Shown here piece by piece: positions 1 to 4,580 of a DNA stretch of 4,645 nt (its first letter is position 1; each line of letters starts with the position of its first letter). The notes under the pieces are model-generated. The model did no database searches, was not told the origin of the DNA, and saw only the letters and a program-made list of their open reading frames with translations. The position numbers and the translations under genes are program-made. Source of the DNA: a virus (taxonomy: Duplodnaviria > Heunggongvirae > Uroviricota > Caudoviricetes); the IMG/VR virus record IMGVR_UViG_2703718812_000024. One strand, given 5' to 3'.

Positions 1-15
1 CATCCCGGGCCACCA
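1..15 (+). other. Possible 3' terminus of a tRNA gene or integration-site core (window begins ...CCCGGGCCACCA)
   Basis: The first 15 nt end in a GC-rich acceptor-stem-like run followed by CCA, immediately upstream of a P4-type integrase gene, which is the usual tRNA-attL-int layout. Too little sequence is present to name the tRNA; I could not match it to a specific E. coli tRNA from memory. Confidence 0.25.
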
Positions 16-22
16 AATCGAT

Positions 23-51
23 ACAAAGTAAAGACAAGTTACGGAAAGTTA
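23..51. repeat. Three AAGT(A/T)A-containing motifs phased about 10 bp apart (acaAAGTAa / gacAAGTTa / ggaAAGTTa)
   Basis: AAGT recurs at 26-29, 36-39 and 46-49 with one helical turn spacing between the putative tRNA end and int. This is consistent with phased protein-binding sites (Int arm-type or IHF-like) in an att arm. Pattern only. Confidence 0.3.
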
Positions 52-134
52 AACAAAGAAAACCCGCACCAGACAAGGAACGCAGTTTTTTTATTGTTCA
101 GTTTGGGTCAGTTTGATAGCGTATAAGCAAGATT

Positions 135-190
135 AAAAAGGCATACAAAAAGGCATACGCATGAAAAAAACACAGATTTGCATATGCCTT
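135..190. promoter_or_regulatory. Perfect tandem 12-bp direct repeat AAAAAGGCATAC x2 (135-146, 147-158) plus an inverted copy TATGCCTT (183-190), 25-80 bp upstream of the int start
   Basis: Exact repeats seen directly in the sequence. Their position just upstream of int suggests an operator or Int/regulator binding-site cluster overlapping the int promoter. Confidence 0.4.
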
Positions 191-215
191 TAACACGCTT
201 ATTGGAGTTTAACCG

Positions 216-2723: not shown

Positions 2724-2975
2724 TAAATTTCCATGTGTGACATATAAAAGCCACCAGCGCAGAAAATAAAACGCCTCACGTTATGCAAAACGGGTTAACC
2801 ATCGTGATGCCTTGCCGCATTCAATTAACGGCAGGTAAAAAAATACCCGCAATGCAATAACACTACGGGCCATTAACGTAATATAAGGAGTTAACCGATG
2901 TGTATTGTATACAGTCGTGTGCATATTGTCACAGGCAACAGGCATCCGCGCCAAATACCCGCCAGAGAAAATCAG

Positions 2976-3005
2976 TTGATCGCCAGTATCAAAAATGGCT
3001 ATGAT
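2976..3005 (+). promoter_or_regulatory. Candidate sigma70 promoter of Icd-like module A: TTGATC (2976-2981), 18-nt spacer, TATGAT (3000-3005)
   Basis: The -10 is a 5/6 match to TATAAT and the -35 a 4/6 match to TTGACA. The same two hexamers with the same 18-nt spacing recur at 3451-3480, and both lie exactly 279 nt upstream of the respective Icd-like ATG. Confidence 0.45.
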
Positions 3006-3066
3006 TCCCGCGCACCTTATAAAACGGGTGTCGGGATTGGAACCCCGCTGGAGATAAAGGCGATAC

Positions 3067-3089
3067 AGACGCCGAACGCGTCTTTTTTT
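3067..3089 (+). terminator. Hairpin plus T7 run (terminator or attenuator-like) in the module A leader
   Basis: AGACGC (3067-3072) and GCGTCT (3078-3083) form a 6-bp stem around a CGAAC loop, followed by seven T (3083-3089). It lies about 62 nt after the candidate -10, so a short RNA of about 78 nt (roughly 3012-3089) is possible. Confidence 0.55.
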
Positions 3090-3155
3090 GTATCGGCGCA
3101 CACGCACACCTTATCAATGGTGGGCTGTATGGGGCTGACTTCGGTCAGGCTGGTT

Positions 3156-3165
3156 TCCTTTATCG
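3156..3165 (+). promoter_or_regulatory. Anti-Shine-Dalgarno element of module A (TCCTTTATCG), perfectly complementary to CGATAAAGGA at 3235-3244
   Basis: 10-nt perfect complement to the sequence overlapping the SD of the Icd-like gene. It is also complementary over 8 nt to an upstream SD-mimic GATAAAGG at 3053-3060. The orthologous element in module B covaries (see 3634-3643). Confidence 0.45.
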
Positions 3166-3254
3166 CCAGTAGTTCCAACTCCGTGCAGTCCACCGCCAGC
3201 GAGATTGGAACCTCCAGCGGTGGGTATATCCCAACGATAAAGGAGGCTGCCATC

Positions 3255-3443
3255 ATGGCTACTACCCCTGCCCTCGTACATTCTCAGACTGCCTTTATCT
3301 GGCGTTTTATCACCTTCGGCACGTCAGAACGTCAAATTATCCACGTAACCGCCTGGACGGAACGCGAAGCGCGTAACCGTTGCCCGTCCGGTTGTGTCGC
3401 TGTATTCGCTGCCCGTATTCGTCAGGGGGTGAGTCATGCTTAA
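3255..3443 (+). CDS. Icd-like small protein, copy A (62 aa; host cell division inhibitor Icd-like family of P1 / P4-like elements)
   Basis: ATG at 3255 preceded by a strong SD AGGAGG (3241-3246, 8-nt spacer). The protein MATTPALVHSQTAFIWRF...TEREAR...FAARIRQGVSHA shares WRF, TERE(A/T)R and ARIRQGV(S/R)HA motifs with copy B. It is in frame with a longer open frame from 2898; I consider the short form more likely, but this is unresolved. Confidence 0.6.
   Translation: MATTPALVHSQTAFIWRFITFGTSERQIIHVTAWTEREARNRCPSGCVAVFAARIRQGVSHA
3411..3430 (+). repeat. 20-bp exact direct repeat GCCCGTATTCGTCAGGGGGT (partner at 3868-3887) at the 3' ends of the two Icd-like genes
   Basis: Exact 20-mer in both copies, followed in each by GTCATGC, while the rest of the duplicated modules is much more diverged. 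Confidence 0.8.
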
Positions 3444-3450
3444 AAACATG

Positions 3451-3480
3451 TTGATCGCCTCTTCTTTCGGGCTGTATGAT
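3451..3480 (+). promoter_or_regulatory. Candidate sigma70 promoter of Icd-like module B: TTGATC (3451-3456), 18-nt spacer, TATGAT (3475-3480)
   Basis: Same hexamers and spacing as module A. The 9-mer TTGATCGCC is identical in both copies. It begins 8 nt after the stop of Icd-like copy A. Confidence 0.45.
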
Positions 3481-3535
3481 GCCGGAGTCGCCCACATGGC
3501 GACCGGGTTTAGCAGCCTGAATACTACAGCGGACA

Positions 3536-3565
3536 GCCGCTTACATTCCGATATGCGGTTTTTTT
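3536..3565 (+). terminator. Weak hairpin plus T7 run in the module B leader (degenerate counterpart of 3067-3089)
   Basis: GCCGC (3536-3540) pairs with GCGGT (3555-3559), with one G-U pair and a large loop, followed by seven T (3559-3565). The T-run sits at the same offset from the promoter as in module A (108 vs 107 nt). Confidence 0.3.
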
Positions 3566-3633
3566 GCGTCCGTAAACCTACCCATACCCGCATTATGGCG
3601 GGGCGTAACGGGGGAGCCTTTGCGCTCGCTGGT

Positions 3634-3643
3634 TCCTGTAGTG
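3634..3643 (+). promoter_or_regulatory. Anti-Shine-Dalgarno element of module B (TCCTGTAGTG), perfectly complementary to CACTACAGGA at 3711-3720
   Basis: 10-nt perfect complement overlapping the SD (AGGAG 3717-3721) of Icd-like copy B. It is also complementary to an upstream SD-mimic ACTACAG at 3523-3529. The sequence differs from module A, but complementarity is preserved in all three elements. Confidence 0.45.
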
Positions 3644-3729
3644 CCAGTCTGCTAACCCCGTTACGTCTCGCCACCATGTTTAGCAGCGTAGTAGCGAGAC
3701 TCCTTAATTTCACTACAGGAGCCTTTCAC

Positions 3730-3900
3730 ATGGCTGTATCCGCACGCCCTTACTTTGTCTGGCGCTTTATGCAGTGCCATGAAAAACAAACCTCACCCTT
3801 TACCGCCACGGCAGCAACAGAACGCGAAACCCGCGCACAACTTCCGCATACCCATCTGATTTTTGTCGCCCGTATTCGTCAGGGGGTACGTCATGCGTGA
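3730..3900 (+). CDS. Icd-like small protein, copy B (56 aa)
   Basis: ATG at 3730 preceded by AGGAG (3717-3721, 8-nt spacer). The protein MAVSARPYFVWRF...TERETR...FVARIRQGVRHA is paralogous to copy A. Its stop overlaps the start of the next gene (ATGCGTGA). Confidence 0.6.
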   Translation: MAVSARPYFVWRFMQCHEKQTSPFTATAATERETRAQLPHTHLIFVARIRQGVRHA

Positions 3901-4207
3901 TGTGTGTAACACCAGAATACTTGAACAACTGGTTACAACCATAAAAGCAGCTGACGCACGGGAAGCGAGAGCGATGTTTGATGATGCTGACTTCTACGCC
4001 CGCAAATTGCTTGAAGGGCTGGCTATCACAGGGCGCTTACTTTCTGGCATGAGTGACAGCATTGATCCTGACATGGACGAACTGCGCAGCCTGGGCGATT
4101 CCATCGCTGTTACGGCTGAACTTGTGGCCGGATTCAGTGAGGTTGTGGAGGTGTACAACTGGCGTTGCCGTAACGGAGATATCAGTACTGATTATCGCCA
4201 TTCGTGA
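3893..4207 (+). CDS. Hypothetical protein (104 aa) translationally coupled to Icd-like copy B; possibly the Ash-family partner usually found after icd-like genes in P4-like elements
   Basis: The ATG at 3893 overlaps the Icd-like stop (ATGCGTGA, stop 3898-3900). The ORF track gives an alternative in-frame start at 3863. The Ash-family label comes from recalled synteny only; I do not recognise the sequence. Confidence 0.55.
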   Translation: MRDVCNTRILEQLVTTIKAADAREARAMFDDADFYARKLLEGLAITGRLLSGMSDSIDPDMDELRSLGDSIAVTAELVAGFSEVVEVYNWRCRNGDISTDYRHS

Positions 4208-4280
4208 TAAGGCAACGACAGTCACAGCTAACCGCATTTATGCAGCAACGGCGTAACTGACCAGAACAAAGGATAAAAAA

Positions 4281-4580
4281 ATGAACATGAAAAAAACTGG
4301 CTTAACTGCCAGCGGCAAGCCTCGCCCTGAATTTAAGCGCGGTGATATTTACCGCGACCAGTACGGCGGCACGGTAATGATTAAGGGCGTGGCGGGGCGG
4401 TGCGTCACCTACCGCCGTAAAGGCTACGAATATGATTGCGTGATGCCTGTTTATCAGTTTTCCCGTGATTTTTCTCTGGTGCAGGCGGTACCGCGTAACG
4501 TGCCCACCAGCAACGTAAAGGCACTGGCAAAAATACAGAAGATGAAAAAGATGATTAACGCATTCAGGGGCAAGAAATGA
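4281..4580 (+). CDS. Hypothetical small basic protein (99 aa)
   Basis: ATG at 4281 with SD AAGGA 7 nt upstream. The stop overlaps the next ATG (ATGA at 4577-4580). No recognisable family motif. Confidence 0.65.
   Translation: MNMKKTGLTASGKPRPEFKRGDIYRDQYGGTVMIKGVAGRCVTYRRKGYEYDCVMPVYQFSRDFSLVQAVPRNVPTSNVKALAKIQKMKKMINAFRGKK

Follow-up and report, generated by a model that had tools for sequence, protein, structure and literature searches.

Three described systems are the closest references for the locus analysed here: the immunity region of phage P4, the immI region of P1/P7 (c4, icd, ant1/ant2), and the isrK-orf45-anrP region of Gifsy-1 in Salmonella. In P4, as the passages of PMC10111431 that summarise Forti 1999 describe it, the long gene eta contains the constitutive promoter PLE and the seqA and CI RNAs, and its C-terminal portion is the nested gene kil; eta is translated at full length from the upstream late promoter alone, in coupling with the alpA homologue, and this translation keeps transcripts from terminating, so that they run through the region. 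A Rho-dependent terminator, timm (X51522 8365-8209), is located inside kil (PMC3177188); this kil-internal termination is relieved by translation, and CI is processed by RNase P/PNPase (PMC3177188, PMC10111431). The P4 sequence itself shows the stop codon of orf88 overlapping an ATG (ATGATGA), from which the frame is open for 200 codons to the kil stop. For P1, a GenBank note describes icd as 'apparently required for expression of ant'. In Gifsy-1, an AUGA stop/start overlap couples the translation of orf45 and anrP, as was shown by mutation (PMC4825925). The subject of the present analysis is the 3' ends of two icd/kil-like genes found in a viral stretch of DNA of 4,645 nucleotides (nt), the Caudoviricetes record IMGVR_UViG_2703718812_000024, which at its full length is called the window in what follows. 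The window probably carries two tandem P4-type cassettes, modules A and B, within a small integrative, satellite-like island of Escherichia coli, in which the 3' end of each icd gene would hand translation on to the next cistron.

The two genes end in a repeated sequence. The 20-mer GCCCGTATTCGTCAGGGGGT is present exactly at 3411-3430 and at 3868-3887, has no further match in the window at up to three mismatches and was matched in 0/200 shuffles; the repeat is not attributable to chance. It can be extended to 29 nt at 27/29 identity, with GA in copy A and AC in copy B, and then GTCATGC in both, as the initial annotation of the window had reported. That the modules are otherwise heavily diverged was also borne out: a MAFFT alignment of module A with module B gives identity at 226/466 aligned positions (48.5%), and the longest exact run shared by them is the 20-mer itself, followed by the 10-nt GTTGATCGCC at the -35 region. 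In both copies the stop codon of icd overlaps a start codon, ATGCTTAA at 3436-3443 in copy A and ATGCGTGA at 3893-3900 in copy B. The parts of these gene ends, here called 3' connectors, and of a second conserved block are the following (SD, Shine-Dalgarno sequence; ORF, open reading frame):

3411-3443, plus strand: 3' connector A, with the 20-mer at 3411-3430 (codons A R I R Q G V) and the SD AGGGGGTGA at 3424-3432
3436-3438, plus strand: ATG of connector A, the start of eta-like ORF B; the icd-A stop TAA is at 3441-3443
3868-3900, plus strand: 3' connector B, with the 20-mer at 3868-3887 and the SD AGGGGGTA at 3881-3888
3893-3895, plus strand: ATG of connector B, the start of ORF104; the icd-B stop TGA is at 3898-3900
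3293-3310, plus strand: second conserved block, codons F-I-W-R-F, paired with 3753-3770 (direct repeat D5, 16/18 identical)

The ATG of copy B starts the downstream gene, ORF104, just as had been proposed, and this gene is so annotated in RefSeq. For copy A, the initial annotation placed the promoter of module B behind the ATG, in lieu of a downstream gene. The promoter is indeed there, at 3451-3480; the absence of a gene was a misreading, in that the ATG opens a 154-codon ORF at 3436-3900.

Each module appears to be a P4-type immunity cassette formed by a constitutive promoter, an isrK/seqA-like RNA, a C4/CI-like RNA and an icd/kil gene. The components are listed below with the evidence for each (aa, amino acids; CDS, coding sequence):

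2898-3443, plus strand: eta-like long ORF A, 181 aa, from the ORF list; its ATG at 2898 stands behind the SD TAAGGAG
2976-3005, plus strand: promoter A, TTGATC-18-TATGAT, from a promoter scan; inside eta-like ORF A, like P4 PLE
3012-3088, plus strand: isrK/seqA-like RNA A, Rfam RF01394, 61.5 bits (gathering score 50), with a1/b1 targets
3067-3083 plus T run, plus strand: intrinsic terminator of isrK-A, from a terminator scan
3113-3200, plus strand: C4/CI-like antisense RNA A, Rfam RF01695, 77.6 bits (gathering score 45), and 108 bits with covariance model R1
3235-3246, plus strand: b2-type target of C4-A, overlapping the icd-A SD (CGATAAAGGAGG)
3255-3443, plus strand: icd/kil-like gene A, 62 aa, NCBIfam NF033153, 58.9 bits (cut-off 25), and RefSeq annotation in relatives
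3436-3900, plus strand: eta-like long ORF B, 154 aa, from the ORF list, with an equivalent 154-aa CDS in RefSeq relatives
3451-3480, plus strand: promoter B, TTGATC-18-TATGAT, from the promoter scan
3487-3565, plus strand: candidate isrK/seqA-like RNA B, Rfam RF01394, 36.6 bits, E=2e-5, below the gathering score of 50
3591-3678, plus strand: C4/CI-like antisense RNA B, Rfam RF01695, 73.5 bits (gathering score 45)
3711-3723, plus strand: b2-type target of C4-B, overlapping the icd-B SD (CACTACAGGAGCC)
3730-3900, plus strand: icd/kil-like gene B, 56 aa, NCBIfam NF033153, 47.3 bits (cut-off 25)
3893-4207, plus strand: ORF104, a RefSeq CDS in relatives, whose start overlaps the icd-B stop

The isrK-A match begins 7 nt 3' of promoter A. 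The isrK-type matches of both modules overlap weak c4-a1b1 matches, which for isrK-B is RF03163 at 3474-3523 (32.4 bits), and the terminator of isrK-B has a long loop and was missed by the simple terminator scan. The loops of C4-A and C4-B, of 12 nt each, differ in sequence, and in both modules the C4 loop is complementary to the SD region of its own icd. In module A, TCCTTTATCG at 3156-3165 and CGATAAAGGA at 3235-3244 are 100% complementary over 10 nt (inverted repeat I21), and in module B, 3631-3643 and 3711-3723 are 92% complementary over 13 nt (inverted repeat I12). Among relatives the C4 loop and the target at the icd ribosome-binding site (RBS) covary, with at least five different pairs among B-type cassettes (e.g. 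L001 5540-5625, L063 and L043), and E. coli strain 48 harbours three different loop/target specificities in a single array. Icd-A aligns with P1 Icd by BLASTP at E=5e-7. ORF104 has no match in Pfam, NCBIfam or PHROG, nor to any solved structure, and an antirepressor (ant) downstream of icd-B was thus not found.

The gene end was then compared across the icd/kil family. Viral contigs were scanned with the pattern F[AV]ARIRQ, with third codon positions free, which returned 120 loci, and an Icd hidden Markov model located 123 gene ends, the window and two RefSeq relatives included. A tblastn search of Icd-A against the phage collection gave one weak match and missed P1; P1 and P4 were taken by accession. 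The gene-end sequence GCC CGT ATT CGT/CGC CAG G[GA]G GT is near-universal. A start codon overlaps the icd stop in each of 82 distinct junctions (78 ATG, 4 GTG), by 8 nt in 51, 11 nt in 28, 4 nt in 2 and 1 nt in 1, and the ORFs opened by these starts are all 40 codons long or longer. In 79 of the 82 the SD begins 10-11 nt ahead of the start codon, and its consensus CAGGRGGT is formed by the codons Q-G/E-V of the icd end; CAGGAGGT and CAGGGGGT match the complement of the anti-SD near-perfectly. The penultimate His codon is CAT in 64/64 sequences and CAC in none, since its AT forms part of the overlapping ATG. Genes of at least nine unrelated kinds stand behind icd ends, and three different icd types can be followed by one and the same downstream gene. 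The SD accounts for the conservation of CAG GRG GT, and the ATG for that of CAT. On this comparison, the 20-mer is the consensus 3' end of icd/kil-like genes and is not peculiar to the window; it is also present in B-type cassettes of the unrelated contigs L052, L054, L063, L094, L111 and L120.

The proposal that the block encodes both the conserved ARIRQGV C-terminus and a coupling or re-initiation signal is well supported by comparison with these junctions (82/82), from P1 icd-ant1 and from P4 kil-epsilon. It had also been held in the initial annotation that homologues lacking conservation of the block would speak against such a role. P4 and P1 do lack the ARIRQG sequence, yet both keep the design of an SD plus an overlapping start, so that only half of this objection applies.

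Conservation at the nucleotide level extends beyond the SD. Among 80 distinct icd sequences, the mean third-position entropy of the block codons A R I R Q is 0.23 bits, compared with 0.93 bits in the adjacent upstream codons for invariant residues (p=0.008) and 0.69 bits in all invariant columns (p=0.05); the probability of six synonymous codons being alike by chance is ~0.002 under E. coli codon usage. Such unusual synonymous-site conservation upstream of the SD would also be expected if the block were some other nucleotide-level regulatory element, e.g. an RBS-masking hairpin, a C4 target or a protein-binding site. This is very improbable, as P4 and P1 keep the SD/start design without the sequence, and as neither RNA measure departs from shuffled controls: junction folding gave z-scores of -0.7, +0.8, -1.3 and +0.75, which is no significant RNA structure, and the duplex energies of C4-A or C4-B with either junction were no better than with shuffled junctions (z +0.8 to +1.9). 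RNA structure at the block and pairing of C4 with it were both rejected as candidates on these results.

A second use of the same block could be in recombination, the initial annotation having described it as a ready substrate for exchange between the two copies. In part this agrees with the data: cassette number varies, and the edges of mosaic homology coincide with the block. Among 106 distinct junctions, 1506 pairs are at least 90% identical over the 60 nt that precede the block and less than 50% identical downstream; counted from the start of the block, their homology stops at +16 to +60, in nearly all of them no later than +44, with a mode at +28. Another 169 pairs show the reverse, with less than 70% identity upstream and at least 90% downstream, and here homology starts at -11 to 0 in 160 and at +43 to +46 in 9. 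The mosaic pairs are not independent events. In complete E. coli genomes the icd 3' end was matched in 1026/5426, with 115 continuing across the junction into the cassette; in many of the ~900 genomes with partial matches, as judged from sampled rows, homology ends at query positions 54-61, i.e. at the icd stop. A contig scan for the tandem-junction pattern gave 13 matches, all in unrelated taxa and attributable to chance; Icd was matched in none of them.

From these boundaries one may argue that the identity of the block derives mainly from a role as a recombination joint, with exchange of cassettes and cargo homogenising it and SD/coupling being secondary. The change-points of both sets of pairs fall around the block, the same downstream gene occurs behind three icd types, the partial genome matches (sampled rows) end at the icd stop, and the synonymous sites of GCC CGT ATT CGT, outside the SD, are almost invariant. 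The boundaries are compatible with a joint; however, any universally conserved functional block would mark homology edges in the same manner, and change-points alone show no crossovers there, the more so as the pairs are not independent. The only copy-number event that could be mapped also took place elsewhere. Strain 48 (L001) carries three cassettes, which keep the 457-nt period, and E. coli STEC17-183 (L002) and the window carry two. Cassette 2 of L002 is identical to cassette 2 of L001 as far as module position 401, and to cassette 3 of L001 from position 362 onwards; a single homologous crossover in the 40-nt identical icd stretch (module 362-401, window 3797-3836) therefore relates the three- and two-copy forms. 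This is 30-70 nt upstream of the 20-mer, which itself differs between its copies at 3-5 positions in L001/L002. A length of 20 bp is at the lower limit for efficient RecA-dependent exchange. A recombination joint as the main source of the identity, which would be compatible with translational coupling, is therefore rated as possible and as the less favoured explanation.

Recent gene conversion between copies A and B within the element is a further way to obtain two identical 20-mers. In its favour, the last copy is ACCCTTATTCGTGAGGGGGT, with three mismatches, in the closest relatives L002 and L001 (98% and 95% identical overall) and has none in the window, and a patch at module 345-396 distinguishes the icd-B of the window from that of L002, which indicates recent exchange in this gene. 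The exact identity of both copies is accordingly not a conserved property. On the other hand, the 20-mer is the family consensus and occurs in B-type cassettes of unrelated contigs, so that no conversion from copy A is needed; the L001/L002 variant looks derived, with three non-synonymous changes (A to T, R to L and Q to E); and the flanks of the 20-mer are unconverted (GA vs AC after it, and different codons before it). Conversion is for these reasons considered improbable, and the identity seen in the window is best explained by the retention of the family consensus in both copies, with intra-element gene conversion not needed.

What the connector leads into in copy A is best seen from the long frames. 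ORF A spans promoter A, isrK-A and C4-A, with icd-A nested in its frame, and its residues 35-129 match Pfam Phage_ASH (PF10554) at E=1.9e-13 and 51.2 bits (cut-off 26). It aligns with P4 Eta by BLASTP at E=3e-6, and P4 Eta itself matches Phage_ASH at E=3.8e-23. ORF B is open in the homologous frame: it starts at the overlapping ATG at 3436, spans promoter B, isrK-B and C4-B, has icd-B nested in frame, and begins with M-L-K-N-M-L-I-A, which shares its frame with the xKNxLIA motif found in the eta ORFs of first cassettes. In 28/28 C4-containing cassettes (~20 distinct sequences), the icd frame has 0 stops over the 243 nt from the isrK start to icd, and the other two frames have 2-9 and 0-7 stops, varying among cassettes. 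Of 13 inter-icd intervals, 12 keep the overlapping ATG and the open frame, with four junction sequences and a period of 457 nt (454 once); the exception is L059, with an interval of 383 nt, where the first icd frame reads through its usual stop. Indels within the frame are compensated, -1/+1 at 88 nt apart in L063 and L112 and +1/-1 in L043, so that the long ORF stays open with lengths of 465, 465 and 462 nt. The region of P1 homologous to the frame has 2 stops in the icd frame across c4, and P1 has no eta. As the frame is open in all cassettes, the indels are compensated and the P1 region contains stops, the pattern argues that the selected feature is the translation of the frame and not its product, which agrees with the reports for P4 eta and Gifsy-1 orf45.

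The opposite reading takes the ATG at 3436 as an unused vestige that was copied with the block when the cassette was duplicated, the long frame being open by descent or by chance. The amino-acid sequence of the frame is not conserved, with frameshifted stretches in L063 and L112, and ORF B has no Pfam match, all of which a vestige would allow. In single-icd contigs, moreover, some stop-to-stop frames of 300-800 codons end in icd with no obvious coding function; these look like non-coding read-through of upstream DNA, and openness alone is weak evidence. A vestige would not, however, be expected to keep its ATG and open frame in 12/13 intervals through four junction sequences (L059 excepted), to have 0 stops in 28/28 cassettes in which the other frames have 0-9, to show indels that are always compensated, or to be open where the homologous region of P1, which lacks eta, has 2 stops; and P4 eta is an experimentally characterised precedent for a frame of this type. 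A vestigial ATG is thus regarded as unlikely, if somewhat less so than gene conversion, and translation of the frame is retained as the preferred reading.

Several observations were made on the frames and on their annotation. The indels of L063 (2960-3424) and of L112 and L043 (both minus strand) are located in the isrK terminator loop and the C4 loop, at module ~92, 112 and 199; they put at most 88 nt out of frame and do not alter the length of the long ORF. The Pfam family Phage_ASH amounts in essence to the translated isrK/C4 RNA region. Two ATGs 12 nt apart, both in the icd-A frame, are contained in ATGgtgggctgtATG (3118-3132) at the 5' end of C4-A, and the database proteins P0003 and P0006 (104-108 aa, 'ash family') start at these ATGs. 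The Prokaryotic Genome Annotation Pipeline (PGAP) is inconsistent in this region: the first long ORF is given as two features, an 'ash family protein' pseudogene that misses its C-terminus and an Icd-like protein of 62 aa, and the second and third long ORFs as 154-aa 'Icd-like proteins' (L001 4389-5848, L126, L127). The eta-like ORFs of first cassettes often start with 18-30 codons of an icd N-terminus, fused in frame (L036 ~4850-5410, L014, L052 2759-3386, L126 2403-2976), and the truncated icd N-termini of L036 and L052 end in IWRF/VWRF, at the F-I/V-W-R-F block. This looks like the outcome of cassette insertion into an icd gene; in the cases where the fusion is at the F-I/V-W-R-F block, that block appears to serve as a second joint.

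Taken together, the anatomy of the modules, the conservation of the connector throughout the family, the open frames and the complementarity of loops and targets are direct observations, and they suggest a mechanism in which the last icd codons, CAG GGG GTn, would double as a strong SD. The ATG, made of the His codon CAT and the following G, is set 5-6 bases after this SD and overlaps the icd stop by 8 nt, so that ribosomes ending icd, or loading at the connector SD, could start the next cistron, i.e. ORF104 and then the replication genes after copy B, and the 154-codon eta-like frame after copy A. In the immune state, transcripts from the internal promoters would yield the isrK and C4 RNAs, and each C4 would mask the RBS of its own icd; untranslated icd would be exposed to Rho, and transcription would stop before ORF104 and the replication genes. 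Should translation enter upstream, either on read-through transcripts by way of ATG 2898 or at icd-A when this is unblocked, a ribosome relay from eta-A/icd-A to eta-B/icd-B and on to ORF104 might cover both cassettes and allow transcription to reach the replication genes. For this element, we infer coupling, Rho dependence and RNA processing by analogy with P4, P1 and Gifsy-1.

A number of points weigh against this account. The SD of the connector is strong enough for independent initiation, so that the dependence on icd translation may be less than strict. The synonymous conservation of GCCCGTATTCGT, 5' of the SD, is not accounted for by the SD; the statistical support for it is modest. The connector is not tied to the RNA immunity system: most icd-like genes of viral contigs have no detectable upstream C4/isrK, and an Rfam gathering search of eight single-icd loci (L029, L009, L011, L004, L018, L013, L003 and L058) gave no RNA family and no match to R1, yet all eight keep the same 3' connector. 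Model R1 was used here in place of a sequence-only nhmmer search for C4/isrK, which was too insensitive (matches in 21 loci). Within the window, isrK-B reaches only 36.6 bits with RF01394, under the gathering score of 50. ORF B reaches no Pfam threshold for Phage_ASH; its N-terminal 98 aa alone weakly match P4-Eta PHROGs (E about 1e-3), and the frameshifted variants do not preserve its amino-acid sequence, so that any protein function of ORF B is doubtful.

The window is 98% identical to an island of ~8 kb inserted in mdtP of E. coli STEC17-183. The order of genes in this island is int, ORF298 (298 aa), an AlpA-like helix-turn-helix gene, the two cassettes, ORF104, DUF4222, RepA helicase, SSB, PerC and Mor, with the RepA helicase lying just past the end of the window. 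The start of the window, CATCCCGGGCCACCA, is as in STEC17-183, where the island splits mdtP (window 1-215; L002 6001-6010 and 14014-14855), and the far end of that island carries tRNA-Tyr and a 'tRNA-OTHER'. The island of strain 48 (95% identical) adjoins a tRNA gene at L001 1434-1509, assigned to Ile by RefSeq and to Met by ARAGORN (anticodon CAT); the same integrase type is therefore found at two different sites, within mdtP and next to a tRNA. The DUF4222 gene ends in AAATGA, and the ATG of the RepA helicase overlaps its stop by 4 nt (ATGA, 4577-4580), which is another overlap in the operon. On the minus strand, a promoter-like GTGACA-17-TACAAT at 2932-2904 is followed by terminator-like hairpins at 2870-2845 and 2792-2772, and a weak match to isrL (RF01395) was obtained at 2839-2925, minus strand, with E=0.0086 and below the gathering score. 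From these signals, a small antisense transcript may be produced between the AlpA-like gene and ORF A, overlapping ATG 2898. A sub-threshold match to beta_tmRNA at 4194-4258, minus strand (22.5 bits, gathering score 84, E=3e-4), is probably spurious.

The repeat that was first noted is real but largely ordinary, and reflects a known mechanism: SD-plus-overlap coupling after icd/kil, the nested eta/kil frame and C4/CI immunity are all already documented, and current understanding is not overturned. In the limited literature that could be accessed, no description was found of tandem cassettes of different specificity chained by the overlap, and these represent what is new, a modest variant. A more tentative extension, held with rather low confidence, is that the 3' block and the 5' edge of the cassette (TAAAAAC just before the -35 TTGATC) might act as in-frame connectors for stacking cassettes head to tail, so that an island could gather two to three C4 specificities and one ribosome relay from the upstream late transcript could override all the locks. 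The icd-to-cassette junction is carried by 115/5426 complete E. coli genomes, and the relay frame is open in every stacked cassette with an intact junction. Were stacking to operate in this way, an island might be immune to, or repress, several competing satellites or helper phages. Should the tandem modules act as a translation relay, the P4 eta/kil paradigm would come to include multi-specificity immunity in E. coli satellites, and a silent CAT to CAC change, which removes ATG 3436, would be a simple genetic handle on it. In more general terms, one short sequence would have three roles, as protein C-terminus, ribosome-binding site and start codon, and is reused before many unrelated genes in the regulatory regions of satellites and prophages. 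The connector also explains why these loci are labelled inconsistently, as 'ash family pseudogene' or as Icd-like proteins of 62 or 154 aa.

Of the known systems, P4 is the closest in layout. It has the same Rfam families in the same order, isrK corresponding to seqA and C4 to CI (P4 CI scores 74.9 bits with RF01695), with kil in the position of icd directly after the RNA, as aligned by eye and within the Eta BLASTP alignment. As with ORF A here, P4 eta is a long Phage_ASH ORF in frame with kil that contains the promoter and both RNAs, and in both elements an AlpA-like gene is located upstream of the cassette. P4 kil ends in GGAGGTGTCCCGTGCGTAA, and epsilon starts 8 nt before its stop with an SD made from the last codons, the same design as in the window. 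The differences are that the cassette is present here twice, and three times in strain 48, with differing C4 loops and targets and with the copies chained by start/stop overlap; that eta-A is preceded by an SD of its own, 175 nt past the AlpA-like gene, whereas P4 eta overlaps that gene; that the C-terminus is ARIRQGVSHA here and ARLPVVEVSRA in P4; that ORF104, in the position of epsilon, has no BLASTP alignment to it; and that the island is without sid, delta and psu and uses a RepA-type helicase.

The targets of C4 in P1/P7 immI are a1/b1 and a2/b2, of which b2 lies on the icd RBS, as in the window. The icd homologue of P1, 37% identical to Icd-A, ends in CAGGGGGGTTTATGA, where TTATGA overlaps the start of ant1. 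In contrast to the window, P1 has no eta-like open frame (2 stops) and a single cassette, with an antirepressor downstream and an overlap of 4 nt rather than 8, and its Icd has ~12 extra residues before the QGG end. Gifsy-1 is similar to module A in that a small ORF with two in-frame AUGs 12 nt apart stands behind isrK and its leaky terminator, and in orf45, as in the frame here, the nucleotide sequence is conserved and the amino-acid sequence is not. It differs in that its upstream ORF has 45 codons with no icd-like domain described, an antirepressor gene comes next, the short IsrK RNA is a trans activator, and no tandem arrangement is described. Finally, the connector shares with coupled bacterial gene pairs in general (ATGA, or 3n+2 overlaps such as 8 and 11 nt) an SD inside the upstream CDS and a start at most 11 nt from the stop; what sets it apart from them is its reuse before at least nine unrelated genes and between repeated regulatory cassettes.

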